Virus record (IMG/VR): IMGVR_UViG_3300049783_001388
Span: 1-58,992 of that record
From: a virus
Taxonomy: Duplodnaviria > Caudoviricetes
Direction: 5' to 3' (one strand)
Length of the DNA stretch: 58,992 nucleotides
Below are positions 5,472-58,992 of the stretch, in pieces. The notes below the pieces were generated by a model, which was given only the letters and a program-made list of their open reading frames with translations, had not been told where the DNA came from and did not search any database. The position numbers and the translations under genes are program-made. The first letter of the stretch is position 1. Every line of letters begins with the position of its first letter.

Positions 5472-5477
5472 TAAATA

Positions 5478-5509: not shown

Positions 5510-5533
5510 ATTTAAATAATTTTATATTAATTA

Positions 5534-13710: not shown

Positions 13711-15365
13711 ACACTTATATTTTTACTAAGAATAATATCATATTTAAGTTTAGGTATGATAAAAATGTAATTCAAGACATTAAGGCTCTACTTAATGAAA
13801 CAAGTTACAATAAGATGGAAAAGACTTGGTCTTGCAGGAAGACACAATTTAATATTGATAGATTAGATTATTTATTCAAAATGTATGGCTTTATACAGGC
13901 TGATGAATCTAAAGAATTTCCTTGGGAAGAACTTAAAAAGATATCTGTAATAACTGAAAGCCAATTGCAAGCGGTTAAAGATTATGCTAAAGATTATGGA
14001 TTCAAATTGACACCAAGAGATTATCAATTATATGGGGTTGCATCAATGTTAAATTTTAAATCATGTATAAATGGTGATGCTATGGGTTTAGGTAAGACAG
14101 GTCAATCTATAATGTCTATTGAAATGGCAAATCTTAAACCCGCTTTAATAATTACTCCAGCTTCTTTAAAATATAACTGGCAAAAAGAATGGAATAAATG
14201 GGTAGATGGTGCAAACATATCTGTAATAGATGGCAAGCATAAAGACTTTGATGCGGACATTGTTATAATTAATTATGATTTATTAAATAAGAATTCTGCA
14301 ATATTAAAGAAGAAGAAATGGGCTTCTATGGTATTAGACGAAAGCCAATTCATAAAGAACTCAAAATCACAAAGAAGTAAGGTCGTCAGAACATTAGCCA
14401 AAAATATAGAGTATAAATTCTTATTAACTGGTACTGCGATAATGAATAGGGTTGATGAGATAATACACCCATTGAAAGTTCTAAATCTATTAGATAGTGA
14501 ATTCGGTGGATGGAAAAAATTTATATTTAAATATTGTGATGCACATTATGGCAATTACGGATTAGATATAACTGGTGCAAGTAATATTTTAGAATTAAAT
14601 TCTGAACTTAGGAAAACTTGTTATATTAGGAGAGAATTATCTGACGTATTAGATAACATACCAGAAAGAGTTGATCAAATAATTGAAGTTCCTTTTACCA
14701 ATAGGGGTAAATTATTATCAATAGCAAATGATGTTGTATCTTTTGTTGAAAAGACTGAAGGGTTAGAAGCTTCACTTAGAGCAGAACTTGCCATCCCACT
14801 AGTCACTTCTATTAAATTAAAGCAATATAATTCAATCGGGAAACAAAATGGCATTAAAGCATGGATAAAAGATTTTAAAGAATCTAGTGATGATAAACTA
14901 TTAATATTTGGATGCAATAGCAATTCTTTACAATATCTATCTAGTGAATTTAAATCCGTATTAATAGACGGTAGTGTAAGTTCAAAAAATAAACTAAAAT
15001 ATATAGAGGATTTTCAAAAATCTGACGAACAGCTTTTATTTGGAAATATACAGTCTCTAGGGACTGGCGTTGATGGTTTGCAAGAAGTTTGCTCCTATGT
15101 ACTGTTTATAGATTTACCAGATGTACCATCGTTAATAGACCAAGCAATAGCAAGGTTAAGGAGATCAGGTCAAAAAAAAGTTGTAAACGTATATTATGCA
15201 TTCGCCAAGGGTGGCATTGATAAATTAATGTGGGATATATTATCTGAGAAATATGAAATTGTAGATGCAATAAACAAAGGTGATAGCAAACGTATTTCTG
15301 AATCAAATAAAAAATTTAATATGAATCAAACATTATTTAATACAGTTAGAAATGGTGAATTTTAA
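13707..15365 (+). CDS. SNF2/HARP-like SF2 helicase
   Basis: RDYQ, DAMGLGKT, DESQ, LLTGT, QAIARLRRSGQ motifs. Confidence 0.92.
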   Translation: MNTYIFTKNNIIFKFRYDKNVIQDIKALLNETSYNKMEKTWSCRKTQFNIDRLDYLFKMYGFIQADESKEFPWEELKKISVITESQLQAVKDYAKDYGFKLTPRDYQLYGVASMLNFKSCINGDAMGLGKTGQSIMSIEMANLKPALIITPASLKYNWQKEWNKWVDGANISVIDGKHKDFDADIVIINYDLLNKNSAILKKKKWASMVLDESQFIKNSKSQRSKVVRTLAKNIEYKFLLTGTAIMNRVDEIIHPLKVLNLLDSEFGGWKKFIFKYCDAHYGNYGLDITGASNILELNSELRKTCYIRRELSDVLDNIPERVDQIIEVPFTNRGKLLSIANDVVSFVEKTEGLEASLRAELAIPLVTSIKLKQYNSIGKQNGIKAWIKDFKESSDDKLLIFGCNSNSLQYLSSEFKSVLIDGSVSSKNKLKYIEDFQKSDEQLLFGNIQSLGTGVDGLQEVCSYVLFIDLPDVPSLIDQAIARLRRSGQKKVVNVYYAFAKGGIDKLMWDILSEKYEIVDAINKGDSKRISESNKKFNMNQTLFNTVRNGEF

Positions 15366-16350
15366 AATAAACGAAGAAAATCTATTCTATTTTTGTGAAT
15401 GGATAAAAGAAAGGCAAAATGTATTTGTTAAGAAATCTGCTGGAGAAAAATATCCATGGACTGATAATGAAATAATTAAAGTTCATAAATTCACAAATGT
15501 ATTTAGGGTATTAGATTGGGAAAGCCAATTCTTAATTAGGCACGTAATAGGCAATGATGATAGGAGTTTAATAGATACAACCTTTAGGATATTATTATTT
15601 AAGCATATAAACTATCAGCCAACTTGGGAACATCTTGAAAATGTTTTAGGTGATATTACATTTACAGATACAATAATTTCTGAAATAAAAAGGGAACTGG
15701 ATTCTTATTGTAAGGGTCATAAAGTTTATAGCTCTGCATACCTTCAAGCAGCTAATTTTGTAAGGACTGATAGATGGGGGCATCTAAAGGGTACTGGTAA
15801 ACATAATGCATATCTAACAGTTTTTGAAAATCAATTATTTAATGTTAAAAGCTTAGACGAATTTGTTAAATTACACGATGTAAAGAATCTTAGAACATTA
15901 ATAGATAGCTTACAGGAAATTGATGGGGTTGGTAACTTTATGTCTTACCAATTTGCACAAGATTTAAATTACAGCCATTGGTGGAATCAGGAAATGAATA
16001 ATGAAACATTTGAAGGTCCAGGATCAATGCGTGGTGTAGATAGATGCTTTTCTAATCACACTAAGAAAGATTATGCAAAGCTAATAAAATGGACTTGGGA
16101 AAACATAGATGAAATGTTTAAAAATTTTGGACTAGGTGACCCACCAAAATTCAGGGGTATGCCACTTCAACTTACTGATATACAAAATTGTTTCTGCGAA
16201 GCTGATAAGTATATGAGAGGTCTTGGTGTCCAAACTCCAGGTGTATCTGGTAAATCAATAAAACAAAAATATAAACAAAGTGGGATGCGTAAATTAGAAG
16301 CGGTGCTACCAAAAAAATTTATTAATAGATTATGGAGTACGAATTCATAA
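15352..16350 (+). CDS. 5-hydroxymethyluracil DNA kinase (aGPT-Pplase1 family)
   Basis: ERQ...PWTD...KFTNVFRVLD, GVGNFMSYQ...DLNYS, GPGS.RG and DIQNCFCEADKY.R are the family signatures; adjacent to a thymidylate synthase homologue. Confidence 0.85.
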   Translation: MVNFKINEENLFYFCEWIKERQNVFVKKSAGEKYPWTDNEIIKVHKFTNVFRVLDWESQFLIRHVIGNDDRSLIDTTFRILLFKHINYQPTWEHLENVLGDITFTDTIISEIKRELDSYCKGHKVYSSAYLQAANFVRTDRWGHLKGTGKHNAYLTVFENQLFNVKSLDEFVKLHDVKNLRTLIDSLQEIDGVGNFMSYQFAQDLNYSHWWNQEMNNETFEGPGSMRGVDRCFSNHTKKDYAKLIKWTWENIDEMFKNFGLGDPPKFRGMPLQLTDIQNCFCEADKYMRGLGVQTPGVSGKSIKQKYKQSGMRKLEAVLPKKFINRLWSTNS

Positions 16351-17330
16351 CATTAGATGATGCCTTAATAGGTATGTCTAAGCAGTTACTAAAAAATGGA
16401 GTACCTAGAGGAACAAGAGGTTTTCAATGTATAGAAATGAGAGAACCTGTATTGATAAAAATTTGCGACCCAACTTCTAGGATAATTAAAAACCCTGCAA
16501 GGGCTTGGAGCCAAACATTGCCAATAGCAGAATCAATATGGTTATTAAATGGTGTAAACTCAATGCATTTACCTGGAGCAATAACTAAAAATTTGTATAA
16601 TTTTAGTGACGATGGTGAGTTTATGAGAGCTGGATATGGACCTAGGATTAGATCATTTAATAATTCAAATGATGACTATAAGATAAAATCCCCTGATGAA
16701 AGATTAGGTGTTGACCAATTAAGATATGTTGTAGAAAGTTTGATTAAAGACCCTAATTCAAGACAAGCATCTATTACAATACATGACCCTAATAAAGATA
16801 ATTTTAACCCTGATGGCTCATTAAAAACAACAAAGGATACACCCTGTACTAGAACAATAAAGTTTGAAAAGAAAAACGGTAAACTGGATTGTATTGTTTC
16901 TATGAGAAGTAATGATTTATTATGGGGATTTTCAGCAGTTAATGTTTTCAACTTCACACTTATGCAAGAAATGGTATCTATGTTAGTAGGTATCCCAATT
17001 GGGCATTATTATCATTTTGCAGAAAACTTCCACTATTACAAAAAAGTAGAAGATCAAATAATTAATATCGCTACATCTTATTTCAAATCAGAACATGAAA
17101 CGTTCCACTACAAGGGTTTAAATGGTGTTAATTTTGATTTCTTTGATTGTGTATTAACTAATGTATATCATTCAGCATTACAGTTAGTTGGTGGGACACA
17201 GAACAGATACTCATCTTTAGTTTGCCAAACAACTGGTATTGACATATTTGATGATATGCTATTGCAAATATTTAAATTTAAAAATAAATCGTTAAACGGA
17301 AATGAATTTTATAACAATAATCTAAATTAA
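16332..17330 (+). CDS. Thymidylate synthase homologue, probable dUMP hydroxymethylase
   Basis: YGPR, SRQA, PCT catalytic Cys, MRSND..WG...N (Asn suggests dUMP specificity), H..NFH.Y; coupled to the hmU DNA kinase. Confidence 0.8.
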   Translation: MEYEFITLDDALIGMSKQLLKNGVPRGTRGFQCIEMREPVLIKICDPTSRIIKNPARAWSQTLPIAESIWLLNGVNSMHLPGAITKNLYNFSDDGEFMRAGYGPRIRSFNNSNDDYKIKSPDERLGVDQLRYVVESLIKDPNSRQASITIHDPNKDNFNPDGSLKTTKDTPCTRTIKFEKKNGKLDCIVSMRSNDLLWGFSAVNVFNFTLMQEMVSMLVGIPIGHYYHFAENFHYYKKVEDQIINIATSYFKSEHETFHYKGLNGVNFDFFDCVLTNVYHSALQLVGGTQNRYSSLVCQTTGIDIFDDMLLQIFKFKNKSLNGNEFYNNNLN

Positions 17331-33096: not shown

Positions 33097-34074
33097 ATGG
33101 ACGCAATAAATCCAAGATACAAAGAAAAACTAGATAGAGTTTCAAAGATATTTAGTGAAACAAAATTTGTTGTTAATACAAGGGGTCGTATTGATAATAA
33201 ATTACATCATACCTTAAAAAATATCCCAAGAATATTATCTAGGAATATTATTGTGATTACCATACCACAAGAAGTAGAGCCATTAAAAAATTTACTTGAA
33301 GAATTAAATATTGAAGTAGATGAAGTATGGGGTATTCATCATAATTATTTAGGTCAAGCTAGGCAAGATACATTAGACAGATTTAAATGCAATGTTGTAT
33401 TCATTGACGATATGTTTACTTTCCATGCAAGAGAACACTCTGACACAGGTATCGAGACTACATATATGCTAAAACAAATTAGTAAAAAAAATTTTAATGC
33501 AGATAAGAGAGAATCAATAATGATTGATATGTTCGAATGGGTTGTAGAGAAATTGAATCTTGGATGTTTTGGTGTCGTTGGTATAAGTAATAGACCATCA
33601 AATAATAATATAAAATTTGATGAAGTTTATAATGATAGAATTGGTGGTTTCTATGGCATTAACTATGAATTATTTCGCACACTGAAAAATGAGCCAAAGT
33701 TAGATGACATGATAACAAAGCAGGATATGTATATCATATTACATTTCTTACAAAATGGTATCCCGTGTGTTAAGTCTTCTAAGTATGCATTTAACAGAAG
33801 TGGTGGGGCAAACTCAAAGGGCGGATGCAGTATATATAGGGATGTTGGATTAATGGACCATGATGCAAGAGCATTAAAATCTTTATTCCCACAATATGTA
33901 AACCTAAAAGATAAGAGTGCAATTTCTTGGAAAAATGTAGGGGATGTAAAAACATTCAAAGATGTTATGGTACAATGGAAAAAGGCATACACTGGAGAGG
34001 AAGTTTACAAATTATGTGGATATTCACAGAAAGAGCCAATTACAAAAGATAATACGCCAAACCCTTATAAATAA
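33097..34074 (+). CDS. GT-A fold glycosyltransferase, TET/JBP-associated (TAGT-like) DNA glycosyltransferase family
   Basis: NTRGR start, GQARQ, FIDD, KQD....L..LQ.G, NSKGGCSIYR, LFPQYV, WKKAY pattern of nucleic-acid GT-A enzymes. Confidence 0.75.
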   Translation: MDAINPRYKEKLDRVSKIFSETKFVVNTRGRIDNKLHHTLKNIPRILSRNIIVITIPQEVEPLKNLLEELNIEVDEVWGIHHNYLGQARQDTLDRFKCNVVFIDDMFTFHAREHSDTGIETTYMLKQISKKNFNADKRESIMIDMFEWVVEKLNLGCFGVVGISNRPSNNNIKFDEVYNDRIGGFYGINYELFRTLKNEPKLDDMITKQDMYIILHFLQNGIPCVKSSKYAFNRSGGANSKGGCSIYRDVGLMDHDARALKSLFPQYVNLKDKSAISWKNVGDVKTFKDVMVQWKKAYTGEEVYKLCGYSQKEPITKDNTPNPYK

Positions 34075-34165
34075 CTCTAAGATACATTTTAAGCAATATT
34101 TAAACCATTTTAAGCAATCTTTGCTTATTTATGGTACAATTTGTAAGCATTAAATATCTAGTGCG

Positions 34166-34197
34166 TTAGGGACGCTTTATTATACCATTACTATTGC
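34166..34197 (+). promoter_or_regulatory. Candidate phage RNA polymerase promoter, copy 3, upstream of the RNA island
   Basis: TTAGGGACGCTTTATTATACCATTACTATTGC. Confidence 0.55.
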
Positions 34198-34213
34198 TAT
34201 ATTTTATTAAGTT

Positions 34214-34293
34214 TCGCTAGAAGTTGTGTTGGTTTATAACACTATCCTCTTAGTACGGGAAAGAGTGCGTTGGTTCGAATCCAACCTAGCGAT
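34214..34293 (+). tRNA. Atypical tRNA-like RNA with elongated anticodon arm (TAG in the loop)
   Basis: Acceptor TCGCTAG/CTAGCGA, D stem GTTG/TAAC, T arm GTTGG-TTCGAAT-CCAAC; 22-nt anticodon arm. Confidence 0.75.
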
Positions 34294-34450
34294 CAAAGAG
34301 TTTTAAAATCTAGGTTTGGACACTAAAAACCATTGGATAAAATGCCATAAAGTAGTCAAATAATAGCATAAATAATTTAGACAGAAACAAACAGCTGATA
34401 ATACATTAGTTGATAAAATGAAGTAAGTTTATCATAATTATTTATTAAAA

Positions 34451-34520
34451 TCTATATTAGCTCAACTTGGTAGAGCAGTTCTTAACTGAATTTATATTGG
34501 TTCGAATCCAATATATAGAT
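34451..34520 (+). tRNA. Atypical tRNA-like RNA with shortened anticodon arm
   Basis: Acceptor TCTATAT/ATATAGA, D arm GCTC-AACTTGGTA-GAGC, T arm ATTGG-TTCGAAT-CCAAT; only 19 nt between the D and T stems. Confidence 0.75.
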
Positions 34521-34544
34521 CAAATAATTACTTGTTAAGTTACT

Positions 34545-34708
34545 AATCCCAGGTACGTAGATTGTCGAACGTCGCGTAGTAGAAATATGTAATATAGACC
34601 CTGAAGAGGAAAATGCATAAGTAAAGGCATAATTAAAACTCATTAAATGAGAATATAGATTATGTACTCTGGGTTAATATATGGGGGGTGCGATAATCCC
34701 CCTTCTTT
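34545..34708 (+). ncRNA. Candidate structured ncRNA
   Basis: CCCAG-GTACGTAG (34548-34560) pairs with TTATGTAC-T-CTGGG (34660-34673); internal hairpins; a GGGGG/CCCCC hairpin follows. Confidence 0.35.
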
Positions 34709-34727
34709 AAAAAAAATTTATAAAAAT

Positions 34728-34957
34728 AAACTCTTTGGATTGAATATAAACTATAGAGGTGTAACATAGAATCCTTGAATAGGTGTTAGTCATGCATCAA
34801 CTATTAAACTGTATCAGCAGTTGTGTTTATTTAAATATATTGCTTAAGAAAATAACGTGTGCCCGATTATAGTTTTAAAAGAACCTCTGATTGATCAGCA
34901 GTAGACAGTGGAGAAAAACCTGCAATATCCCATAGCTTTAATTGGGACAAAGAGTTT
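34728..34957 (+). ncRNA. Candidate ~230-nt pseudoknotted ncRNA
   Basis: Perfect 10-bp closing stem, two crossing helices and several hairpins; followed by a terminator. Confidence 0.5.
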
Positions 34958-34966
34958 TTAAAATAT

Positions 34967-34990
34967 AAGGGTTGGTATAACCCTTTTTTT
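34967..34990 (+). terminator. Intrinsic terminator ending the RNA island
   Basis: AAGGGTT-GGTAT-AACCCTT plus T run. Confidence 0.85.
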
Positions 34991-35020
34991 AACAAAAAAA
35001 TCAACACTAAATTATAAAAG

Positions 35021-35134
35021 ATGAAAAAAAGAAAACGTTGCAAATCAGTAAAATTATCTGGATCTTCTGAGCCTAAAAGAGTTAGCAAAAGAGTTGTCTT
35101 AAACGATAAAGGTTTCCCATCATGCAAGAAATAG
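35021..35134 (+). CDS. 37-aa highly basic peptide not in the ORF track
   Basis: MKKRKRCKSVKLSGSSEPKRVSKRVVLNDKGFPSCKK with an A-rich start; overlaps the polymerase start. Confidence 0.45.
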   Translation: MKKRKRCKSVKLSGSSEPKRVSKRVVLNDKGFPSCKK

Positions 35135-38100
35135 TTGGAAGCTTAGAAAAAGATAGGATATTGTATAATGTACTAGATGATTCTACTATTGAGATAGGTG
35201 GTAAAGATTACCAAATAATTAAAGAACATGATGGACTAATAATAGATTCTAAGTTTAGGTTTATTTGTGATAAATCACAGGAAAATGCTATATTTAATTT
35301 TGGTGGAAATCTTTACTATTGCGAATTCGATAATTTTCAATTAAATGAGCTAAGGTACATTGGTGAAAATGATTATCTAATGGACGATTATGCATTCTTA
35401 GGAGTGCATGGTGGTATGGAAATATTAAGTGGGAGTAGAGAGTATTCTGATTGGGTAAAGAAAGCTAATTTTCTTGGTATTAAAAACCTTGCTATATGTG
35501 AAAAAGATACATTAGCTGGAGTTATGAAATTTCAAATAGAATGCAACAATAAAGGCATAAAGCCAATAATTGGAATGCAAGTTACAGTATTGGACGAAGA
35601 TGAAGAAATTCATCTTTTAAACTTATATACAGTTAACGATGATGGTTGGAAAAATTTATTATCAATTAATAAAATAATTAACGTCGATAACATTGGCAAA
35701 CCAATTAAGAATTCGCAACTTGAGGATTGTATGCTTGGTCTTGTTGCTATTTACAATGTAGATAGTATAAGTTATAAGCAATACAAAAAATACGATCGGC
35801 ATAGTAAAAATTTTGCAATTAGTTATTTGAAATATTCTACTGATGAGTTAGAATTTAATTACTTAAATGAATTAAAATTATTCATAAGAGACTCAAATTT
35901 AAAACCTTATTCTTTAACTAATGCATACTATTTAGAAGAAGACCATTCAAGGGTTAAAAAAGAATTGCAACTTATAGGTAAAATTTCTAAGAGAGTAACA
36001 AAGTATAGAGAGAACTTTCATTCTAATGAAGATTTATTTCTCCACTACGATGAAAAAACTAAAGACATACCTCACTTAGTTCTTTATTCTATAGAAAATA
36101 CTAACAAATTATCAGATCTTTGTAATTTTAATGTCAGCCAAAATGGCAGGAATCTACCTAGATATAAGATGAACCAAAATGAAATTGATGAATTTGGTAT
36201 AGATGGTAGTGAAGATCTATTCTGGAGTTTGGTTCAAAAGGGTATTGCTAATAAAGTACCTACTGATAAGCAAGAGGAGTATATGGACAGAGTTGCTACT
36301 GAATGGGAAGTAATTGAATACGGAGACGTAATGGATTATTTCTTAATATTGTGGGACATAATAAAATGGGCAAGATCTAAAGGTATATTAGTAGGTGATG
36401 GTCGAGGTTCAGCAGCAGGATCATTAGTGTCGTACCTTATGGACATAACTAGGGTAGATCCAATAGAGTACAATTTGCTATTTGAAAGGTTCTTAAATAG
36501 GGGTAGGGTTGAAAAGTCTCTACCAGATATAGATGTAGATTTTAGTGGGAAGCGTAGATGGGAAGTTAAGGAATATGTAATGAACAAATACGGATATGAC
36601 TATTTCTGTAGTGTAGGCACTTATACGAACCTGAAACCAAAATCTTTAATTAAAGAAATTGGAAAACTAAATGGTTTAGAACACAGTGACATAAATTATT
36701 TCACTACATTAATGGGTGACTCTAATGAATTCTTAGATATATTTACAGAAGCACAAAAGAGACCACAAATTAAGAAATTTGTTTGCAATAATGTAGGCAT
36801 AATTAATGAGACAAGGTTGATGAATCTACAGCCTAAAGCAGAATCAATTCATGCTTGTGCTACAATTATAGTACCAAACTCTAAAGAAATTTATGAGTGG
36901 ATACCAGTAAAGGTTATGAACCAAAATGGCGAACACGTATTGGTAAGTCAATGGGAAGGTGCGGAGCTTGAGTCTGCTGGATTCTTAAAGGAGGATATTT
37001 TAGGTCTTGGGTTATTAGATAAGTACGAAATGATTTTATACTTAATTAAAAGAGACTACAATATAGATATTGATTTATATTCAATAGATATACACGAGCC
37101 TGAAATATATGAATACTTTAGGGAAGGTTGGAGTTCTGATATATTTCAATTTGGTACTCCAGGGTTAACTTCATATTGTAAAGAGATGAAGCCAGATAAT
37201 GTTGAAGATATGATCGCGGCAGTAAGTTTGTATAGACCTGGTCCAATGGAAAATGGTTTTCACAAGAAATATATCAAATGTAAATTAGGTATAGACGAGA
37301 CATACCATTTCCCACACATGGAAGATATAACAAAAGATACTTATGGTATTCTATGTTATCAAGAACAAATTATGCAGACTTGTGTTAAGATTGGTGGATT
37401 GCCATTAAGTGAAGCGGATGATATTAGAAAATCTATGGTAAAGAAAAAAATATCAGAAATTGAAAAATACTCTGCAAAGTTTCATGAGCATGCCATAAAT
37501 GTATTAAAAATTGATGAAATAATTGTACAAGAAATTTGGGAAACATTATTAAAATTTGCCAGTTATGGTTTCAATAGAAGCCATGCTGCAAGCTATTCAA
37601 TAATGGCTATCTATGGACAATGGTTTAAGATTAATTACCCACTACAATTCTGGAGTACAACATTTAGTTTCGGAGATGATAAAACATATCCAAATTTTAT
37701 ATCTGAAATTAATAAGATTGGAGGTATTAAATTAAATCCAGTTGATATTAATCTAAGCGGTAGTACTGTAAATTCAGATTTTGACACTAATGCATTATAC
37801 TGGAGTTTAAATTCAGTTAAGCAATGTGGAGATAAATCTTATACACAGATTGTAGAAGACAAGAGGCTTAAAGGTGATTACATAAGTTTCGATAATTTCT
37901 TAACAAGGAATGTTTATAAAGGCAGTAAAGTAAATAAGGCAGTTATAGAAAATTTAATTATATGCGGAGCATTTGATAAATTAGAATTCATAGACAACAT
38001 TTGTGAAAGAAATAGGTTAGTGGATTACTATCATACTTATGCAAAAGTAAGGGGGGATCACTCTATTAAATTCTCAAATACTGAATCTAAAAATTGGTGG

Positions 38101-38487
38101 GCTTTAAAACAAAGAGAATTATGTGGGCTTTCAATATTTGATTACAGTTCTATTGTATCAGAAATTAATAAAGGCGATAGTTGGGATACACCAGATGAAT
38201 TTGAATCTTTAGGGGATGGTGCAAGAGTCAATGTTTGTGGCTTCGTACAAGACTTTGAAATTAAGAGGATTAGGAATGGTAAAAGAATGTGTATTGTAAA
38301 ATTAGATTATAACTATGAAAATTTTGTATTAACAATATGGGATGAAACCCTAGATAGTTATGAAGATCTTATAAAAGATTGCAAGGAGAAAATTGTTATA
38401 TTTAGGGGGCAACTCAAATATGATAATTTTCATAAAGAGCTAAGGGTATTTTCTAATAAAAATTCTTTAATGGAATTAATATCTTAA
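35122..38487 (+). CDS. dnaE: DNA polymerase III alpha-type (family C) polymerase
   Basis: PHP-like region, GRGSAAGSLVSY, LLFERF, PDIDVDF, KEDILGL, YQEQ, YGFNRSHA, C-terminal OB fold. Confidence 0.97.
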   Translation: MQEIVGSLEKDRILYNVLDDSTIEIGGKDYQIIKEHDGLIIDSKFRFICDKSQENAIFNFGGNLYYCEFDNFQLNELRYIGENDYLMDDYAFLGVHGGMEILSGSREYSDWVKKANFLGIKNLAICEKDTLAGVMKFQIECNNKGIKPIIGMQVTVLDEDEEIHLLNLYTVNDDGWKNLLSINKIINVDNIGKPIKNSQLEDCMLGLVAIYNVDSISYKQYKKYDRHSKNFAISYLKYSTDELEFNYLNELKLFIRDSNLKPYSLTNAYYLEEDHSRVKKELQLIGKISKRVTKYRENFHSNEDLFLHYDEKTKDIPHLVLYSIENTNKLSDLCNFNVSQNGRNLPRYKMNQNEIDEFGIDGSEDLFWSLVQKGIANKVPTDKQEEYMDRVATEWEVIEYGDVMDYFLILWDIIKWARSKGILVGDGRGSAAGSLVSYLMDITRVDPIEYNLLFERFLNRGRVEKSLPDIDVDFSGKRRWEVKEYVMNKYGYDYFCSVGTYTNLKPKSLIKEIGKLNGLEHSDINYFTTLMGDSNEFLDIFTEAQKRPQIKKFVCNNVGIINETRLMNLQPKAESIHACATIIVPNSKEIYEWIPVKVMNQNGEHVLVSQWEGAELESAGFLKEDILGLGLLDKYEMILYLIKRDYNIDIDLYSIDIHEPEIYEYFREGWSSDIFQFGTPGLTSYCKEMKPDNVEDMIAAVSLYRPGPMENGFHKKYIKCKLGIDETYHFPHMEDITKDTYGILCYQEQIMQTCVKIGGLPLSEADDIRKSMVKKKISEIEKYSAKFHEHAINVLKIDEIIVQEIWETLLKFASYGFNRSHAASYSIMAIYGQWFKINYPLQFWSTTFSFGDDKTYPNFISEINKIGGIKLNPVDINLSGSTVNSDFDTNALYWSLNSVKQCGDKSYTQIVEDKRLKGDYISFDNFLTRNVYKGSKVNKAVIENLIICGAFDKLEFIDNICERNRLVDYYHTYAKVRGDHSIKFSNTESKNWWALKQRELCGLSIFDYSSIVSEINKGDSWDTPDEFESLGDGARVNVCGFVQDFEIKRIRNGKRMCIVKLDYNYENFVLTIWDETLDSYEDLIKDCKEKIVIFRGQLKYDNFHKELRVFSNKNSLMELIS

Positions 38488-38523
38488 GATTAATTTTTTA
38501 AATAAAAAAATCTTTTTAAAGCT

Positions 38524-38555
38524 CCAAATCTTGGGCATTATTCATACGTAAATCA
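38524..38555 (+). promoter_or_regulatory. CCAAATCTTGGG-N7-CATACGTAAATCA repeated element
   Basis: Related copies at 51070, 53301 and 58629. Confidence 0.5.
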
Positions 38556-38595
38556 GTAAATTGGACCCAGACATAAAATTTAAGAATGATTTACG

Positions 38596-38666
38596 CACTA
38601 CTAGGTATGATTTATCATGCCGGAATGTTGCTAGGCGACAATGTGGTTCGAATCCATAAGTAGTGA
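38596..38666 (+). tRNA. Atypical tRNA-like RNA with no canonical anticodon arm
   Basis: Acceptor CACTACT/AGTAGTG and T arm TGTGG-TTCGAAT-CCATA. The interior is GGTATGA-TTTA-TCATGCC and TGTTGC-TAG-GCGACA. Confidence 0.7.
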
Positions 38667-38700
38667 CAAAAGTAGTATTAGACATCATTAACTAATAAAT

Positions 38701-39195
38701 TTGATTAAAATGGATATAGTAAAGAACAATAAAATTATTGCAAGATATATGGGAGGGAAATTCCCAGGTGAAGCTAGATTTTTTATAGAACCTCAAGATG
38801 TTTGGCTACCAACGTTTGGATTTTGCAGATCGGATACAGTTGATGTAGGGAAAGGTAAAATCCTAGAATACCAAAAAAGTTGGGATTGGCTTATACCTGT
38901 GATTGAAAAAATTACAAGTGATGATGCTTACCCTAAATACTTGGATTATTCAAGTGGTATGCTTGATAAGGGGGGTGTCCATATTAACACGAAATTTATT
39001 TCTAATACATATAATCAAGTTATTTATTTTATTTATTGGTACAATGAGCAATTAACTTTATCTGATGCTGATAAGGCATCTGAATTTGAGAAAGACCTTT
39101 TTAAATTGATAAACAAATATTGCAGTGGTGGATTAAAAAAGCCAGAACTTGTTAAGGTGATGGAATGGGTTTTAATTAATTGCAAAACGAGTTAA
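38701..39195 (+). CDS. Hypothetical protein
   Basis: NKIIARYMG...SWDWLIPVIEKI motif common in phage hypothetical proteins; start probably the ATG at 38710. Confidence 0.65.
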   Translation: MIKMDIVKNNKIIARYMGGKFPGEARFFIEPQDVWLPTFGFCRSDTVDVGKGKILEYQKSWDWLIPVIEKITSDDAYPKYLDYSSGMLDKGGVHINTKFISNTYNQVIYFIYWYNEQLTLSDADKASEFEKDLFKLINKYCSGGLKKPELVKVMEWVLINCKTS

Positions 39196-39898: not shown

Positions 39899-42268
39899 AT
39901 GACTGAAGCTGAAATGAAAATGCACATTTGTGATAGGATTAATCAAAAGAACTTTAAAAATATTAAAGGGGTTGATCAATCACTAGACAAAGGTACATTC
40001 GCAAATAAATTATTAACGGACGGAGTTTACAAGGTAGCTGATGCTATTAAGACTTCACTTAATAAAGTAGGTAGGGGCAAGAAACTTAAAGCTAAAATAA
40101 TAATTGAAGAAAAGCTAGGAAAAGAATTTTTAAATGACGAAGATAACTTAATTTCTTTTAGTTTATCATTAGTTGAACTAACTTTATCTAAATTATACTT
40201 AGACAATAGAAAAGTTTCTATGAGAATGTCTGTCGCAAATAAAATAGTTACAAAACTATTAGAGGGTGACAAAAGCAATAAAGAACATGTCCAAGTTGCA
40301 GTAAGTCTATTCGAAACAGTTGTGGATTCTTTACCATTTTTAAATGTAGAAAAATATTATGAAAATGGTGACACAAGGTTTGAATATTACCTTAATGAAG
40401 ATGTGCTTGGAGATATTAAGTACTTAATAAATTCATTCATACGTGATGGTTATTACCCAATGCCAATGACAATAAAGCCTACTGATTGGCAATTTGTTAA
40501 TGGGAAACTAATTGGTGGGTACAATTCTCTTAAGACTGATTTAATTAGGAGTAGTAAAATATCAATGCCAAACTCATTATTTAATCCATCTTTTTTAGAA
40601 GACAGCGAACCCATAAGGGCATTAAATAAAATACAAAGTGTCCCATATAGGATTAACAGGAATAATTTAATTAGATTAAAAAATGATTTAAAGTTGCCAA
40701 CCAAGCCAGAAATACCAGATGGATTTTCTCAATGGGGTAAAGATTGGGCATACTATAAGGAAGACATTAAAATATTCGAAAGGGTTGGGGGTTGTGAACC
40801 TGAAAAGCCAATTATAGAACCTGAAAAACATGAAGAGTTTGTTAAATATTTATCTAAGAAAAAGAAATATATTAGCGATTTAGGTAAGTACAATACAAAC
40901 TCGCTATCTGTTAAAATAGCGGAAGAGTTGGTTGACGAGAAATGTATTTACTTCCCACATAATTTTGATTACAGGGGCAGGATGTATCCAATACCAATTG
41001 GGTTATCCCCACAAGGTAACGATGTATCTAAAGGTTTGTTAGAGTTTTATGAACCAGTACAACTAACTAAGGAAGGTATTTCTGAGTGTGTAGCATATCT
41101 CGCATCAACTTATGGGCACGATAAAGAAAGTTGGGAAAGCAGGTATAAGATAGGTTTAGAGCTAATGCAAAATCCTAATACAAGCTATAAAGATGCAGAA
41201 GAACCTTATGTTTTTGCACAAATATGGGATTTAATATGGCAAATAAACTCTCGCAATCTTGAAAGTCGTGTGGCAATAGCTATAGATGGCTCATGTAATG
41301 GCATACAACACATGAGCGCAATAACTCTTGATAAGAATGGGGGCAAAAATGTAAACTTATGCAATGAAACAAAAAGGTTTGATATATATCAAATAATTGC
41401 TAAGAAAAGTGTTGAAATAATGTTTGAAAGGGAAAGGGAACTTAAAGCTTTTGAAATGTTAGATGAAAAAGAGCAAAAGGAGTTAGAATTATTGCCAAAC
41501 TTAATTGAAATAATGCTAGGTGATAAATCAAGGAAGATAGCTAAACGACCTGTTATGATAAACCCTTATGGGGGTTCATTTACAGGCTATAAATCTTACG
41601 TCCTTGAATCTCTAAAGGAATATTATCCAATATACGGAAACCAATTTACAGCTGGAATACTTACTAAATATATTAGTGAAGCAATGAAGGAAGGCTTAAA
41701 GGGGGGAAGCCTATATAAGAAATGGGTCAGTTCTGCCTTTAAACAGGTCGCAAATTCAATCGAATCCCATAATGAAGGTTCAATATATTTTACAACACCT
41801 GATGGATTTGTAGTTAGGAATTTTATGTATAAGATAAACAGTAAGCAGTACGATATTAAGAGCCTTGTTAATAGGTCTGGGACTAGGAGGGTTAAGCTCC
41901 AAACCATAACTAATGAAATAAACTCTAGAAAGATATCTACAGCCATACAGCCAAACATTATCCACTCACTTGATGCAACACACTTAAGGATGACAACATT
42001 AAGTATGTGTGATAACGGTGTGGATCAACTATGGTTTATACACGACTCTTTCGCTACTAACCCCAATAGCGTAGTAATGTTGAATAGGATTACTAGGGAA
42101 ACATTCATTGAACTATATAATGAAAATAACCCAAACCATCCACTAAACTTACTATATAGGGATATTCAGGATCAAGTAGGGGTTATAGAAAAAGATTTCC
42201 CAAGATTCAAGGGTAAGGATAAATTAATAATGAGCGAAGTATTACAAAACGAATTCTTTTTCGCATAA
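39899..42268 (+). CDS. T7-like single-subunit DNA-directed RNA polymerase
   Basis: DYRGRMY, motif A AIDGSCNGIQH, motif B RKIAKRPVMINPYGG, TPDGF, PNIIHSLDA, motif C IHDSF. Confidence 0.97.
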   Translation: MTEAEMKMHICDRINQKNFKNIKGVDQSLDKGTFANKLLTDGVYKVADAIKTSLNKVGRGKKLKAKIIIEEKLGKEFLNDEDNLISFSLSLVELTLSKLYLDNRKVSMRMSVANKIVTKLLEGDKSNKEHVQVAVSLFETVVDSLPFLNVEKYYENGDTRFEYYLNEDVLGDIKYLINSFIRDGYYPMPMTIKPTDWQFVNGKLIGGYNSLKTDLIRSSKISMPNSLFNPSFLEDSEPIRALNKIQSVPYRINRNNLIRLKNDLKLPTKPEIPDGFSQWGKDWAYYKEDIKIFERVGGCEPEKPIIEPEKHEEFVKYLSKKKKYISDLGKYNTNSLSVKIAEELVDEKCIYFPHNFDYRGRMYPIPIGLSPQGNDVSKGLLEFYEPVQLTKEGISECVAYLASTYGHDKESWESRYKIGLELMQNPNTSYKDAEEPYVFAQIWDLIWQINSRNLESRVAIAIDGSCNGIQHMSAITLDKNGGKNVNLCNETKRFDIYQIIAKKSVEIMFERERELKAFEMLDEKEQKELELLPNLIEIMLGDKSRKIAKRPVMINPYGGSFTGYKSYVLESLKEYYPIYGNQFTAGILTKYISEAMKEGLKGGSLYKKWVSSAFKQVANSIESHNEGSIYFTTPDGFVVRNFMYKINSKQYDIKSLVNRSGTRRVKLQTITNEINSRKISTAIQPNIIHSLDATHLRMTTLSMCDNGVDQLWFIHDSFATNPNSVVMLNRITRETFIELYNENNPNHPLNLLYRDIQDQVGVIEKDFPRFKGKDKLIMSEVLQNEFFFA

Positions 42269-53581: not shown

Positions 53582-54085
53582 ATGATTATGAAACACATTT
53601 TTTTAAAAGGATCTAGTGTAACTAAGCTTAATAAAATTATTAAGCAAGACATTTCAATTAATGACTCTTATTATACAGGTGTCCCACAAATAGAAAGGGT
53701 GGTAACAGAGTTTGAAAGTATGAACAAAACTTTATTTGAAATACTAACATTCCACAAACCAGAAGCTGATGATTTCTTCTATTTAGGCACAAAACAAATT
53801 TACAACAAAGATCAACAAGCGTTAATGTTAGAAACATATCATGTAAATGGTTCAATCTATGAACGTGTCCATTACGCAAAAGGAATTGCCCAATACGTTC
53901 AAATATATAATGACCAAGGTGATTTGTCTGGTTCAATACATTTATATGATAGCAAAGTGGTGTATGTAATTGATAATAAGCAAGTAAGTGAATATGATTT
54001 TTGGAATTTAAGCTGTGAAGAGTTTCAAAATAATACTTATGATTATTGCTTTACTGGTGCAAACTGTCTACAATATAAAAACTAA
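53582..54085 (+). CDS. MORN/YwqK-like repeat protein, paralogue family A
   Basis: YHVNGSIYERVHYAKG...YNDQGDL beta-hairpin repeats; start placed at the ATG after the AAAACAGT leader. Confidence 0.6.
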   Translation: MIMKHIFLKGSSVTKLNKIIKQDISINDSYYTGVPQIERVVTEFESMNKTLFEILTFHKPEADDFFYLGTKQIYNKDQQALMLETYHVNGSIYERVHYAKGIAQYVQIYNDQGDLSGSIHLYDSKVVYVIDNKQVSEYDFWNLSCEEFQNNTYDYCFTGANCLQYKN

Positions 54086-54092
54086 ATTTGAA

Positions 54093-54133
54093 TCCAATCA
54101 GGGCATATAATTGGTTTTGTATGCCTAAATTTA
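54093..54133 (+). promoter_or_regulatory. TCCAA/-7 promoter cassette with internal hairpin
   Basis: TCCAA 54093, GGCATA/TATGCC, TAAATTTA 54126 (offset 33). Confidence 0.8.
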
Positions 54134-54155
54134 CTTATAACTAAAAACAGTACAA

Positions 54156-54377
54156 ATGAAGAATAAAACGATTTTACGCCCCTTGACTATGAAAAATGAG
54201 CGACCTAAAGTGATTAAAAAAGAATACACTGAATCAGATCTCATAAGGGCATACAGGTTAGGGTGCAGTGATGGTAGTGGAACAAGCGAACCAAAAGACA
54301 AAAGGTATATGCAAGGCTGGGACAGGACTCAAGCAGAGAATATTCAGTTACAAAAAATCATAAACAGTACAAAATAA
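54156..54377 (+). CDS. Hypothetical protein
   Basis: ORF behind a promoter. Confidence 0.65.
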   Translation: MKNKTILRPLTMKNERPKVIKKEYTESDLIRAYRLGCSDGSGTSEPKDKRYMQGWDRTQAENIQLQKIINSTK

Positions 54378-54378
54378 A

Positions 54379-54519
54379 ATGGAAAAAGATTTTAAAAGAT
54401 TACTAGAAATATACTCAAGTCAACTAGGATTTAAATTAGATAAATACCACATTGATCTAATGAGAAATACTTTAGAAACTTACGATTTGTTTGTCAAAGT
54501 TGAAAAGCACTTAAAATAA
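54379..54519 (+). CDS. 46-aa protein not in the ORF track
   Basis: MEKDFKRLLEIYSSQLGFKLDKYH... Confidence 0.55.
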   Translation: MEKDFKRLLEIYSSQLGFKLDKYHIDLMRNTLETYDLFVKVEKHLK

Positions 54520-54548
54520 TAGATAAAGATTCAAATTTACATAAAGAA

Positions 54549-54589
54549 TCCAATCAATACCTATGTTTTAAAAAATGTAGGTATATTTA
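54549..54589 (+). promoter_or_regulatory. TCCAA/-7 promoter cassette with internal hairpin
   Basis: TCCAA 54549, TACCTA/TAGGTA, TATATTTA 54582 (offset 33). Confidence 0.8.
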
Positions 54590-54613
54590 CGTGTAACTTA
54601 AAAACAGTACAAA

Positions 54614-54967
54614 ATGAAAACAAACATTCATCACATCATCAACGTAAAATCAGGCAAAGAAGAAGTATTCTTTGATCACCTAGGAAACTTATCCATACCA
54701 AGCATTAAAGATATACATAGGAATATTGATCAAATAGTCTTTGGTATTGGCTTTGAAAATGGATACTTCTTTAATCAATTAAAAATAGCCAATAACAGGA
54801 ATATAACTAAAGCTGAATACAAAAAACGCTCACATACATTTAGAAAATCTGAATATGAATTTGATTGTTATTGTGTAGGTCAAGAATTAGAAAGTTCACG
54901 ATATACAGGTTATGAACCAGATCTAAACCCTGGAGGTGGACCTTATAACCCTAATGATAATATTTAA
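54614..54967 (+). CDS. Hypothetical protein flanked by 40-bp direct repeats
   Basis: ORF between identical repeats at 54517 and 54965. Confidence 0.65.
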   Translation: MKTNIHHIINVKSGKEEVFFDHLGNLSIPSIKDIHRNIDQIVFGIGFENGYFFNQLKIANNRNITKAEYKKRSHTFRKSEYEFDCYCVGQELESSRYTGYEPDLNPGGGPYNPNDNI

Positions 54968-54996
54968 TAGATAAAGATTCAAATTTACATAAAGAA

Positions 54997-55037
54997 TCCA
55001 ATCAGGGCATATTTTTTGTATTTATGCCCTACATTTG
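54997..55037 (+). promoter_or_regulatory. TCCAA/-7 promoter cassette with internal hairpin
   Basis: TCCAA 54997, AGGGCATA/TATGCCCT, TACATTTG 55030 (offset 33). Confidence 0.8.
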
Positions 55038-55061
55038 TATATAATTTAAAAACAGTAAAAA

Positions 55062-55535
55062 ATGAACAAAATGAAACTAATATTCTTAACTAAATCTTCG
55101 GCAACGCTTGAAAACATAGTAAGCCAAAATCTTGAATTATTTGATTGCTGCGGAGCTTTGCCAATAATAACTGAAATTGAATCTAATTTCGTAAACAAAA
55201 AAGGTGTACTAATTACTGAAAATCTTGAATTTGATGAACACAAGGGGCATCAATTCTTAAAAATGAAAAGTTTATCACATTTTAATGGTTTTATGTATTG
55301 TGCTGAAATATACCACCATAATGGGAATTTACGTGAAGAAGTTTTTTTTAATGACCTTGGTACTGCCAAAAATATTCATATATCAAATAAAAAAGGAAAT
55401 CGTATAGCTACATTCTTAATTGATAATAGGGGTGTAAGGTTATTTGAAAAAGGTACCGAAGTTGACCCACATGGTTACGAAAAATATCTATTTAGTGATT
55501 CTTGGGTAAACACAATACCTGATCTATTAACATAG
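55062..55535 (+). CDS. MORN/YwqK-like repeat protein, paralogue family A
   Basis: YHHNGNLREEVFFND; N-terminus similar to 53582. Confidence 0.65.
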   Translation: MNKMKLIFLTKSSATLENIVSQNLELFDCCGALPIITEIESNFVNKKGVLITENLEFDEHKGHQFLKMKSLSHFNGFMYCAEIYHHNGNLREEVFFNDLGTAKNIHISNKKGNRIATFLIDNRGVRLFEKGTEVDPHGYEKYLFSDSWVNTIPDLLT

Positions 55536-55554
55536 TGCAAACAAATTCAATATT

Positions 55555-56034
55555 ATGAAAAAATTTATTAAGAGTAGAGGCAGTTTAGCAACACATGAAA
55601 TCATTCGAGAACAAGTGGTCACATACGGGAATTGCAATGGAAACCCATACACAAAATCAATAATTAATGAATGGCTACTGGGTAATGATAATCATTATGA
55701 AGAAATAACTTATGATGATGGGGAAGTGAGTAATATATATTGGAAAGTGAATGGTAAACCCACAAGGCAAAATTCTTATTTTGTTACTAAAAATGGTTGG
55801 ACCTTATCTGAATCTTGTGTATATGGTACTACAGGAATCAATACCATGACCTTTGGTGAAATTGGAACTGAAAACCACAATGGTATGCTAATCTATAGTA
55901 AAGATATAATGATTGGTTACTATAATATTGATGGTAAATACCAACCAATAAATGGTAGTGATGATCATACAATATGGAAGTGGCAAGAAAAATTAGGTAT
56001 ATACAGTGATTCATTATTAAACATTTTTACCTAA
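55555..56034 (+). CDS. Hypothetical protein, distant member of family A
   Basis: N-terminus KKFIKSRGSLATHEIIREQ resembles its two neighbours. Confidence 0.6.
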   Translation: MKKFIKSRGSLATHEIIREQVVTYGNCNGNPYTKSIINEWLLGNDNHYEEITYDDGEVSNIYWKVNGKPTRQNSYFVTKNGWTLSESCVYGTTGINTMTFGEIGTENHNGMLIYSKDIMIGYYNIDGKYQPINGSDDHTIWKWQEKLGIYSDSLLNIFT

Positions 56035-56045
56035 TTGTCATAATT

Positions 56046-56071
56046 AAGCTACATAATTGTAGCTTTTTTTT
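56046..56071 (+). terminator. Intrinsic terminator
   Basis: AAGCTACA-TAAT-TGTAGCTT plus T run. Confidence 0.85.
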
Positions 56072-56176
56072 AGACACTATGATTAAAAATATGACAAGTT
56101 TTAAGCAATCTTTATTTTAAATTGGTATGTGGCTATTAAAATTTTTAAAAGATGCCTTAAACCGCTTAACTTTGCG

Positions 56177-56217
56177 TCTTAAGTTGGTATGTAGTACGTT
56201 AATTTATGCTACATTTA
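56177..56217 (+). promoter_or_regulatory. Variant promoter cassette
   Basis: TCTTAA 56177, TACATTTA 56210 (offset 33). Confidence 0.6.
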
Positions 56218-56239
56218 CATATAATTAAAAACAAGCAGT

Positions 56240-56413
56240 ATGAACAAAATGAATAATTTACAGCAAGACATTATTGAAAATAGCTTAACAGTATTTGAAC
56301 CTGAAAGTAATGATAGTGTACACCAAAAATTAAAAAGTGGAAATGATTACCCATATAGCTTTTTAGATGATGATTATTTTAAAAATGAAAATGAAAGCAT
56401 GCCATATATTTAA
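56240..56413 (+). CDS. 57-aa acidic protein not in the ORF track
   Basis: MNKMNNLQQDIIENSLTVFEPES... after a CAGTATG leader. Confidence 0.55.
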   Translation: MNKMNNLQQDIIENSLTVFEPESNDSVHQKLKSGNDYPYSFLDDDYFKNENESMPYI

Positions 56414-56422
56414 CCACAAATA

Positions 56423-56725
56423 ATGAACAGTATGAAAAAAATGAATAAAAAGTACAAGGCAACATCATTAGTTGAAAAACTGAAATGCAATGGTAATCAA
56501 TCCTTGATTGGTTGTATAGTAAAGTTTGAAAACTTGAAACATAAGGGCAACTATCATAAAAACAACTTGTTTGAAATCATTGGTTTTCAAAGAGTTTATG
56601 GGCATAATGCCGAAGGTGAATATACATTAATTGATGGGTTAAGGCTAATGTCAATAACTTGCTTTGATGATTTTGGAACACCATGCAACTATAATGAAAT
56701 ATCATTTTTAACTACAAATAATTAA
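56423..56725 (+). CDS. Hypothetical protein
   Basis: ORF; start possibly 56432. Confidence 0.65.
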   Translation: MNSMKKMNKKYKATSLVEKLKCNGNQSLIGCIVKFENLKHKGNYHKNNLFEIIGFQRVYGHNAEGEYTLIDGLRLMSITCFDDFGTPCNYNEISFLTTNN

Positions 56726-56798
56726 CAGTATGAGTCCACAAATATTAAAACAATTGAAAAACTAATAGGTAGCTAAAGATTAAAATTTAAAATAAGAA

Positions 56799-56839
56799 TC
56801 CAATCAAGGCATATAGTGTACATTATATGCCTATATTTA
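56799..56839 (+). promoter_or_regulatory. TCCAA/-7 promoter cassette with internal hairpin
   Basis: TCCAA 56799, AGGCATATA/TATATGCCT, TATATTTA 56832 (offset 33). Confidence 0.8.
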
Positions 56840-56864
56840 CGTATAATTAAAAACCTATAACGTT

Positions 56865-57107
56865 ATGATTTATCTATTGCCTAATTTCGCCCCTGCCCAT
56901 AATCAATCAAAAGACCAACTATCGTATAAAAATTTTATAATAGATTTTTCAAATTCTTATAAGATATCTGTATTTTGCAATAATGATCTACACCACGGAG
57001 ATTTTGATAATATCATTAGCGCAAAAAATTATATAAATAGTTATATAAATAGTAGCCTATATGATAAAGAATTGATATATAATATAAATTTAAAGAAATT
57101 ATTTTAA
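56865..57107 (+). CDS. Hypothetical protein
   Basis: ORF behind a promoter. Confidence 0.6.
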   Translation: MIYLLPNFAPAHNQSKDQLSYKNFIIDFSNSYKISVFCNNDLHHGDFDNIISAKNYINSYINSSLYDKELIYNINLKKLF

Positions 57108-57117
57108 AAAATAAGAG

Positions 57118-57158
57118 TCCAATCAAGGCGCATAATTTACATTTTATGCCTACATTTA
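57118..57158 (+). promoter_or_regulatory. TCCAA/-7 promoter cassette with internal hairpin
   Basis: TCCAA 57118, GCATAA/TTATGC, TACATTTA 57151 (offset 33). Confidence 0.8.
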
Positions 57159-57184
57159 CATATATTAATTTAAACACAAACAGT

Positions 57185-58756: not shown

Positions 58757-58992
58757 CGGTTCTTCTTGACTATCGGTTCATGTTTCTATGTGACTATCAT
58801 TTCGTCGGTTCTGTTCGGTTCATGTTTCTTCTTGACTATCTGTCGTGGTTCTGTTCGGTTCATGTTTCTTCTTGACTATCGGTTCGTGGTTCTGTTCTAA
58901 TCATGTTTCTTTATGACTACTGGTTCTTTAAGATGTTCTAAATCACAGTTCTATGTGACTACTGGTTCTTTAAGATTTTCTAAATCACAGTT
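58757..58992. repeat. Degenerate ~41-nt tandem repeat array running off the window end
   Basis: TGACTA anchors at 58767, 58791, 58833, 58873, 58914, 58956 (spacings 24, 42, 40, 41, 42); GTTC/TTTC sub-motifs. Confidence 0.9.

Follow-up and report, generated by a model that had tools for sequence, protein, structure and literature searches.

The closest described counterparts of the RNAs considered here are the t-elements of plant mitochondria, which combine the T-arm motif GGTTCRANYCC with an acceptor stem in a non-standard transfer RNA (tRNA) cloverleaf and lie beside genes; cutting by ribonuclease (RNase) P and RNase Z sets messenger RNA ends and frees a small RNA able to gain C/A residues (Forner et al. 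2007, PMC1920247). We describe three elements of comparable architecture, E1, E2 and E3, in a 58,992-nucleotide (nt) stretch of DNA from a cold-water marine phage of the Caudoviricetes (IMG/VR record IMGVR_UViG_3300049783_001388), hereafter the window. All three have acceptor and T arms of tRNA type and each has an abnormal anticodon region; we tentatively read them as non-decoding RNAs that are cut by host RNase P and 3′-end enzymes in the manner of t-elements, and we give this reading slightly less than an even chance of being right.

Phages are already known to produce small RNAs with tRNA-like ends: species 1 and 2 of T4 and RNA1 of T5 are encoded beside tRNA genes, and we know of no function for any of them. 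A tRNA-Lys variant of T5 reportedly neutralises the PARIS system. Permuted genes for transfer-messenger RNA (tmRNA), in which the molecule is encoded in two pieces, require RNase P and tRNA-type 3′ processing. Such two-piece tmRNAs are common in marine phages (PMC9004378). Our literature searches, which did not extend to subscription journals, listed no paper on t-element-like or anticodon-disabled tRNA mimics in phages.

Results

Three elements with intact acceptor and T arms

The T-arm sequence GGTTCGAATCC, with at most one mismatch, occurs at three sites in the window (34272, 34499 and 38645, all on the + strand) where 0.18 would be expected; none of 100 shuffled sequences reached three. 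A structural scan sought a T loop inside a paired stem, followed by a 7-nt strand with its complement 25–95 nt upstream. It found all seven Watson-Crick acceptor pairs together with a 5-base-pair (bp) T stem at E1, E2 and E3 only (Table 1). Both counts bear out a preliminary description of this sequence, which had recognised three tRNA mimics with intact acceptor and T arms. A looser version of the scan gave 22 matches in 421 kb (the window plus the loci compared with it) against 6–12 in shuffled sequence, and only its top class is meaningful. Each element also carries the t-element T-arm motif in a non-standard cloverleaf with an acceptor stem.

Where gene finders had been expected to return undetermined or pseudo calls, ARAGORN reports E2 as ‘tRNA-???’ and E1 as tRNA-Lys(ctt); it leaves E3 uncalled, and E3 matches no Rfam family even at E ≤ 5. 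E1 and E2 pass the Rfam gathering cut-off for tRNA (RF00005, 29 bits) and E3 does not. Neither ARAGORN nor Rfam detects a further tRNA in the window, in agreement with the earlier remark that no normal tRNA is present, but CheckV estimates the record (30.3% G+C) to be 56% complete. Nor does ARAGORN call a tmRNA in the window, and no tmRNA family matches positions 33900–38800 at E ≤ 5. Acceptor pair 3-70 is G-C in E1, U-A in E2 and C-G in E3, in no case G3·U70.

Table 1. Elements E1–E3 and neighbouring features, in window coordinates
Feature	Position	Strand	Remarks
Promoter-like motif	34166..34198	+	Repeat family D15, 33 nt; ends 15 nt before E1
E1, tRNA-shaped RNA	34214..34293	+	Rfam tRNA 38.5 bits; ARAGORN tRNA-Lys(ctt)
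Sigma-70-like promoter match	34410..34438	+	10/12 positions, 17-nt spacer; ends 12 nt before E2
E2, tRNA-shaped RNA	34451..34520	+	Rfam tRNA 48.0 bits; ARAGORN tRNA-???, two-base anticodon
Conserved structured RNA, after E2	34521..34717	+	About 190 nt; terminator-like hairpin 34683–34702 at end
DNA polymerase III alpha (dnaE)	35122–38487	+	Pfam
Promoter-like/regulatory motif	38524..38562	+	Repeat family D20, 39 nt; 34 nt before E3
E3, tRNA ‘top half’ mimic	38596..38666	+	7-bp acceptor stem and 5-bp T arm; minimum-energy fold
Single-subunit RNA polymerase	39899–42268	+	Pfam

Each anticodon region is abnormal in its own way

In E1 (44% G+C in a genome of 30%) the acceptor, D and T arms are all standard, and the D arm has its GG. 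Its anticodon arm is 22 nt long (element positions 29–50): a 7-bp stem (34242–34248 with 34257–34263), which includes one A·A mismatch and one U·G pair, closes an 8-nt loop (34249–34256). The Lys(ctt) fold proposed by ARAGORN, with a 7-nt loop, needs a stem in which just three of five pairs form (−9.4 kcal/mol versus −17.7 for the cloverleaf with the extended stem). E1 resembles a lysine CUU anticodon loop to which five nucleotides have been added; its loop letters are of lysine type (CUU). Among contigs of four DNA runs, natural variants of E1 occur at 34233 (D loop) and 34248 (T>C; runs X5 and X7). The second turns the U·G pair of the long stem into C-G, taking its cloverleaf from −17.7 to −19.9 kcal/mol and leaving the ARAGORN fold unchanged; base 34248 would be the invariant U33 of that 7-nt-loop fold.

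E2 has textbook acceptor, D (with GG) and T arms, and 18 nt between position 26 and the T stem, against a standard 21–22. Its anticodon arm of 14 nt is 3 nt short, with a stem of 4–5 bp (34477–34481 with 34488–34492) and a 6-nt loop (34482–34487); a 7-nt loop with a central CUU can be had only if the stem shrinks to 3 bp and takes in a base from the D stem (−8.3 versus −13.6 kcal/mol). Here too the loop letters are lysine-type (CUU). When E2 is matched over its whole length to 114 cellular tRNAs with the same D arm, a tRNA-Lys(CUU) comes first, by a margin small enough to make this a hint only, and the D arm itself, found at no fewer than 120 loci that include cellular tRNA-Trp (at least 49), His (at least 34), Lys-CUU (at least 13) and others, does not fix the parent. 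The discriminator of both lysine look-alikes is U, where lysine tRNA identity leads one to expect A.

In E3, tight hairpins at 38604–38621 and 38626–38640 replace the D and anticodon arms, and the minimum-energy fold consists of exactly the acceptor stem, the T arm and these two hairpins (−25.2 kcal/mol, z = −4.3). The three departures differ, as the preliminary description had said: an over-long arm, a shortened interval and a pair of hairpins. At the standard distance, none of the elements can form a 5-bp anticodon stem closing a 7-nt loop (U33, purine 37), and the anatomy upholds the view that they are non-decoding. A further remark, that TAG or TAA lies in each candidate loop, is correct (joint chance about 0.012 from the window’s own triplet frequencies); for E1 and E2 this triplet follows from the lysine-type loop letters, and it is absent from the copy of E3 in the relative L018.

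The pairing of E3 appears to be kept between diverged phages

Of 38 metagenome loci, the only close relatives of the window are L018 (DnaE 71% identical) and L055, a near-identical 2.1-kb fragment in which E3 is unchanged. The copy of E3 in L018 is syntenic, again after dnaE. Counting by hand, we found three of the seven acceptor pairs to be changed on both sides and none to be broken, while 13 nt spanning the T loop, the discriminator (A) and the CAA after it are identical although the flanks barely align. Both copies also place a second hairpin with a 5-nt loop beside the T arm, built from different stem letters. That both acceptor strands change together argues that selection acts on the pairing of the RNA rather than on sameness with a host gene; judged from this comparison, E3 appears to be kept by selection on its pairing between the two phages.

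E2 comes and goes

In run X5 one contig passes straight from 34290 to 34518 at a shared stretch of 7 nt; the 227-nt deletion removes E2 and its spacer, and read depth in this run is zero over 34322–34482. Taken together, these observations indicate that the X5 strain, about 1% diverged, lacks E2 and the spacer (some caution is due, the deletion contig being single and of depth 4.9). As a result, in X5 an intact E1, complete with discriminator and CAA, stands directly before the conserved RNA that otherwise follows E2, exactly in the place of E2. E2 persists in L018 only as a degenerate copy, whose T loop has 8 nt and whose acceptor stem has 4 bp, with the T-CAA end kept and the same 27-nt block after it; the genes upstream of the E1/E2 locus differ between the window and L018. 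No strain variation was seen within E2 or E3 themselves, which at about 1% divergence says little.

CAA is a habit of the lineage

The preliminary description had noted N-CAA, in place of CCA, after each element. CAA does follow all three elements (34294–34296, 34521–34523 and 38667–38669), but it is no mark of mimicry: across the wider clade it follows the discriminator at nine of 11 tRNA-type ends, against a CAA background of 2.5%. The nine are E1, E2, E3, three ends in L018 (the probable tmRNA discussed below included), a standard tRNA-Ser of a distant relative (L015) and the odd tRNA-likes L014 and L016; the other two ends read CAG and CTA. Because ordinary tRNA-type ends have it too, CAA is a lineage habit of tRNA-type genes, and this common feature points to one shared 3′-end pathway for all of them.

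Flanking motifs, a structured RNA and a relative’s probable tmRNA

The D15 motif before E1 is one of four copies in the window, and the other three (11966, 19658 and 24162) each stand just before the start of an open reading frame (ORF); the first bases of the copy at 34166 overlap a small terminator-like hairpin (34163–34175). The D20 motif before E3 has three copies (38524, 51071 and 58627), and the copy of E3 in L018 is likewise preceded by a similar stretch. A third family of repeated intergenic motifs (about 65 nt, five copies) occupies 54084–57173. All three families have the look of phage promoter or regulatory-site classes.

On the + strand, the stretch from E1 to the hairpin at 34683–34702 contains no predicted terminator, and neither does the interval between dnaE and E3; a single primary transcript would thus carry E1, E2 and the structured RNA. 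Four blocks of the structured RNA are 82–92% identical to L018, and a long-range pairing closes its domain. In L018 the matching domain separates the two parts of what is probably a permuted (two-piece) tmRNA gene at 1584–2092, upstream of dnaE, which occupies the place of E1 and E2 in the window. There the T arm and 3′ acceptor strand (about 1645–1676) come first, and about 260 nt further on comes the 5′ acceptor strand with G3·U70 and the tag; the discriminator is A, followed by CAA rather than CCA. This assignment rests on an ARAGORN call, with a tag ending AA, and on a match to Rfam RF04321 of 32.8 bits (E 9e-4) that falls below the cut-off of 47. The window is without both tmRNA-specific segments and resembles L018 with these taken out, the second gap lying between two G-runs.

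Odd tRNA-like genes elsewhere

Among five records whose DnaE is 34–39% identical, two contain matches to the tRNA model: two standard tRNAs (Ala and Ser) and three odd ones, L014, L016 and L017. The odd genes, in records G005 and G001 (DnaE 34–36%), have good acceptor, D and T arms with broken or over-long anticodon arms: in L014 the anticodon region is short and does not pair, in L016 the loop has 9 nt, and the score of L017 is 21.9 bits. By eye, each stands 15–25 nt before an ORF start, and a second odd tRNA-like lies just upstream of L016. Lesions confined to the anticodon arm therefore recur, in a sample that is small and biased by the detectors.

Pattern searches of viral contigs gave no match to the 3′ end of E3 and none to the conserved block after E2. 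The odd arm of E1 gave 20 matches, which we took as chance, none having an adjoining T-loop motif. A relaxed E3 pattern matched 17 loci: 13 contain ARAGORN tRNA genes, mostly tRNA-Glu, and of the four uncalled ones only G007 has a weak DnaE match (29–39%). One E3-like match in an unrelated phage, L215, was set aside as it folds no better than shuffled sequence (z = 0.5). In searches of 50,697 phage records with blastn, E1 and E2 gave generic D-arm or T-arm matches only. Y-RNA-like or other known RNA families were rejected, as Rfam showed no match to them.

One further RNA was noted in an unrelated 143-kb phage of IMG/VR (L207:127–222). In this tRNA-shaped RNA of 96 nt the D arm is standard, the variable arm is long and a T arm is present; the place of the anticodon arm is taken by a 7-bp stem closing a 4-nt loop. 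It folds very well (−32 kcal/mol, z = −4.2), ends in A-CAA and receives no ARAGORN call. It is another anticodon-less mimic.

Other features of the window

Nearly all genes of the window are on the + strand. Besides the polymerases of Table 1, Pfam identifies RecA, a 5-hmdU DNA kinase, a thymidylate-synthase-like protein and dUTPase. Among cultured phages the nearest are those of the Cellulophaga phiST group (about 68% nucleotide identity across 11% of a 5-kb query taken from within dnaE). The window sequence is present in DNA runs labelled ice or marine metagenome, and there are polar and marine runs that contain 5–95% of its sequence words.

Between the structured RNA and dnaE lies a variable cassette (34727–34994): the X4, X6 and X7 contigs depart from the window sequence there or skip 34755–34942, and the corresponding place in L018 is occupied by a small ORF. 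A very basic small ORF of 37 amino acids (35021–35134) overlaps the dnaE start, in surroundings conserved in L018 (blastn block from 35009). The 5-hmdU DNA kinase gene adjoins the thymidylate-synthase-like gene at 15352–17330, a pairing that suggests hypermodified thymine in the phage DNA. Positions 3–7764 encode two very large proteins (1822+ and 631 amino acids) of DUF285 repeats, with 75-nt periodic repeats in the DNA; these are probably tail-fibre or host-recognition proteins. Tandem repeats of 41–42 nt near the right end of the record (58765–58982) may be iterons or a terminal-repeat structure.

Discussion

We picture the elements as marks for cutting. E1 and E2 would descend from ordinary tRNA genes, probably for lysine CUU, through a gain of 5 nt in the anticodon arm of one and a loss of 3 nt from that of the other, and E3 would mimic no more than the acceptor and T arms. 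What the three have in common is the part recognised by host RNase P, by RNase Z or exonucleases acting on the 3′ end, and by the CCA-adding enzyme. Cutting at both ends would release a small, stable tRNA-like RNA and at the same time set the ends of its neighbours: the structured RNA after E2 (after E1 in the strain without E2) and the message of the genes after E3, that of the phage RNA polymerase included. Transcription, cleavage and any effect on neighbouring RNAs are inferred. The X5 deletion counts for cutting marks, in that it retains a tRNA-type 3′ end before the conserved RNA; so do the intact acceptor and T arms beside anticodon arms that cannot decode, the conservation of E3 in L018, the promoter-like motif ahead of each element, the probable tmRNA gene around the matching domain of L018 and the shared CAA. 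Of the roles offered in the preliminary description, an RNase P/Z processing signal fits the context best, and modulation of stringent-response sensing is unlikely because RelA reads codon-matched tRNA in the ribosomal A site.

Several observations weigh against this proposal. The L018 copy of E3 has an A·A mismatch in the T stem and a different interior, and its lowest-energy fold (−18.3 kcal/mol) is without the T arm, the tRNA-like fold reaching −12.9. E2 is dispensable in X5 and degenerate in L018, and no copy of E1 is seen in the 8.4 kb of L018 examined, all of which fits plain gene decay as well. The D arm and its GG, retained in E1 and E2, would be superfluous in a mere cutting mark. Promoter-like matches are no commoner in this region than in shuffled sequence, so the sigma-70-like match before E2 is only a hint; and among the listed sequencing runs that hold 34000–38800, none is on record as RNA. 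L018 is, moreover, the one informative relative, ARAGORN finds no tRNA near dnaE at any of ten viral-contig loci with DnaE 27–39% identical, and Cellulophaga phage phiST has no tRNA match above cut-off, only a hairpin after dnaE. The earlier suggestion that selection maintains the acceptor/elbow shape holds unevenly: for E3 the acceptor pairs and T-loop stretch are kept, against the altered interior and the T-stem mismatch; for E1 the one observation in its favour is the U-to-C change that makes a C-G pair in the extended stem; and E2 is absent from a strain about 1% diverged and degenerate in L018.

The same facts can be told as loss. E1 and E2 may be tRNA genes, probably for tRNA-Lys(CUU), that were each inactivated by one insertion or deletion in the anticodon arm, no longer have a function and are disappearing, with E3 a separate matter; we regard this, the main rival, as somewhat unlikely. 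A single lesion per element is what a recent pseudogene would show, E2 has been deleted in X5, its L018 copy is degenerate and E1 is not seen there, and the locus is a variable junction, with different upstream genes in L018 and 34727–34994 replaced in other strains. The ARAGORN CUU anticodon of E1 and the best whole-length match of E2 also suit such an origin. Decay accounts less readily for where the damage fell: in E1, E2, L014 and L016 every lesion is in the anticodon arm, about one fifth of a tRNA, and the other stems are fully paired, although four cases subject to detection bias make this a weak argument. Nor would decay lead one to expect the 44% G+C of E1 in a 30% genome, a sole stem polymorphism in E1 that strengthens the non-standard stem, the promoter-like motif that E1 retains, of a class otherwise placed before protein genes, or an X5 deletion that leaves E1 whole, discriminator and CAA included. 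E1 and E2 could instead be lysine-tRNA decoys or inhibitors whose target is a defence nuclease of the host directed at tRNA, or some other protein that binds tRNA; the distorted anticodon arm would keep them from use by ribosomes and from productive cutting. Lysine-type loop letters in a distorted arm, on a full L-shaped body with D-loop GG and T loop, would suit this purpose, and tRNA-Lys is a classic target of anticodon nucleases such as PrrC, which changes in the anticodon loops of phage tRNAs are predicted to evade (PMC10264068). We nevertheless consider decoys improbable: E2 is dispensable in nature; the lysine ancestry comes down to a few loop letters and one weak alignment, with discriminator U in place of A; and E3 has no anticodon-like loop that is conserved in L018.

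E1 or E2, or both, might be unusual decoders, an 8-nt loop reading four bases in frameshift suppression and a 6-nt loop reading two. ARAGORN permits such loops, and 8-nt loops can read quadruplets in Escherichia coli (10.1101/2021.04.26.441066). We think this very improbable, given that the E1 stem is 2 bp over the standard and the E2 arm 3 nt under it, either of which would displace the anticodon relative to the acceptor end; that the variant at 34248 alters the would-be invariant U33 of a 7-nt loop; that E2 is missing from a near-identical strain; and that the large ORFs of the window all read through in the standard code (in an analysis that included no search aimed at frameshift sites). 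Barely credible, in our estimation, is the idea that the elements are phage attachment sites (attP) containing pieces of host tRNA genes. Phages do often integrate at tRNA or tmRNA genes and carry their 3′ part (PMC9004378), but here each element has both strands of its acceptor stem, the two strands of E3 change together between the window and L018, and Pfam finds no integrase, recombinase or tRNA-handling enzyme among 65 + strand ORFs of at least 80 amino acids (minus-strand ORFs not scanned; record 56% complete).

The cutting marks that we favour and the decoys need not be alternatives for all three elements: E1 and E2 might soak up or block a tRNA-Lys-directed nuclease while E3 acts as an RNase P/Z ‘punctuation mark’ before the RNA polymerase operon, a division of labour to which we allow an outside chance. 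What is at stake is easily overlooked, as gene finders tag phage tRNA-likes with unusable anticodons as ‘pseudo’ or ‘undetermined’ and such genes are then ignored. If the elements are cutting marks, phages, like plant mitochondria, would shape transcripts other than tRNAs with host tRNA-processing enzymes; as decoys, the elements would be an RNA-based counter-measure in the conflict over tRNA-cleaving defences; and if the combined reading were true, non-decoding tRNA mimics would make up a class of phage RNA genes that is widespread yet hardly described. The presence and absence of E2 counsels caution here: apparent design may partly be ordinary turnover of an RNA-gene cassette.

Set beside known systems, E1 and E2 share with ordinary tRNA (RF00005), and with tRNA-Lys(CUU) in particular, the 7-bp acceptor stem, the D arm with GG, the T arm and the lysine-type loop letters, and differ in the anticodon arm (22 nt in E1 and 14 in E2 against a standard 17), whereas E3 is without D and anticodon arms and does not match the tRNA model. 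The tRNA-like domain of tmRNA likewise joins an acceptor stem to a T arm without an anticodon arm and undergoes tRNA-type processing, and the probable tmRNA of L018 ends in the same N-CAA; E1–E3, in contrast, lack the G3·U70 alanine mark, a tag reading frame and any match to a tmRNA model. T4 species 1 and 2 and T5 RNA1, which we liken to E1–E3 by description only, are larger RNAs from the big tRNA clusters of coliphages. The non-decoding pseudo-tRNA ‘tRNA-Other’ of Bacillus cereus (PMC3399842), likened on the same footing, is also tRNA-shaped and affects the cell although it plays no part in translation; its gene lies on the chromosome rather than in a phage, and it is not known to be related in sequence. 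Finally, t-elements as portrayed in PMC1920247 are organellar, whereas the elements here belong to an uncultured bacterial phage, and E1 and E2, with their full D arms, are nearer to real tRNAs than most t-elements are; E3, on the other hand, matches t-elements in both anatomy and placement, and it was through the same T-arm motif that t-elements came to light.

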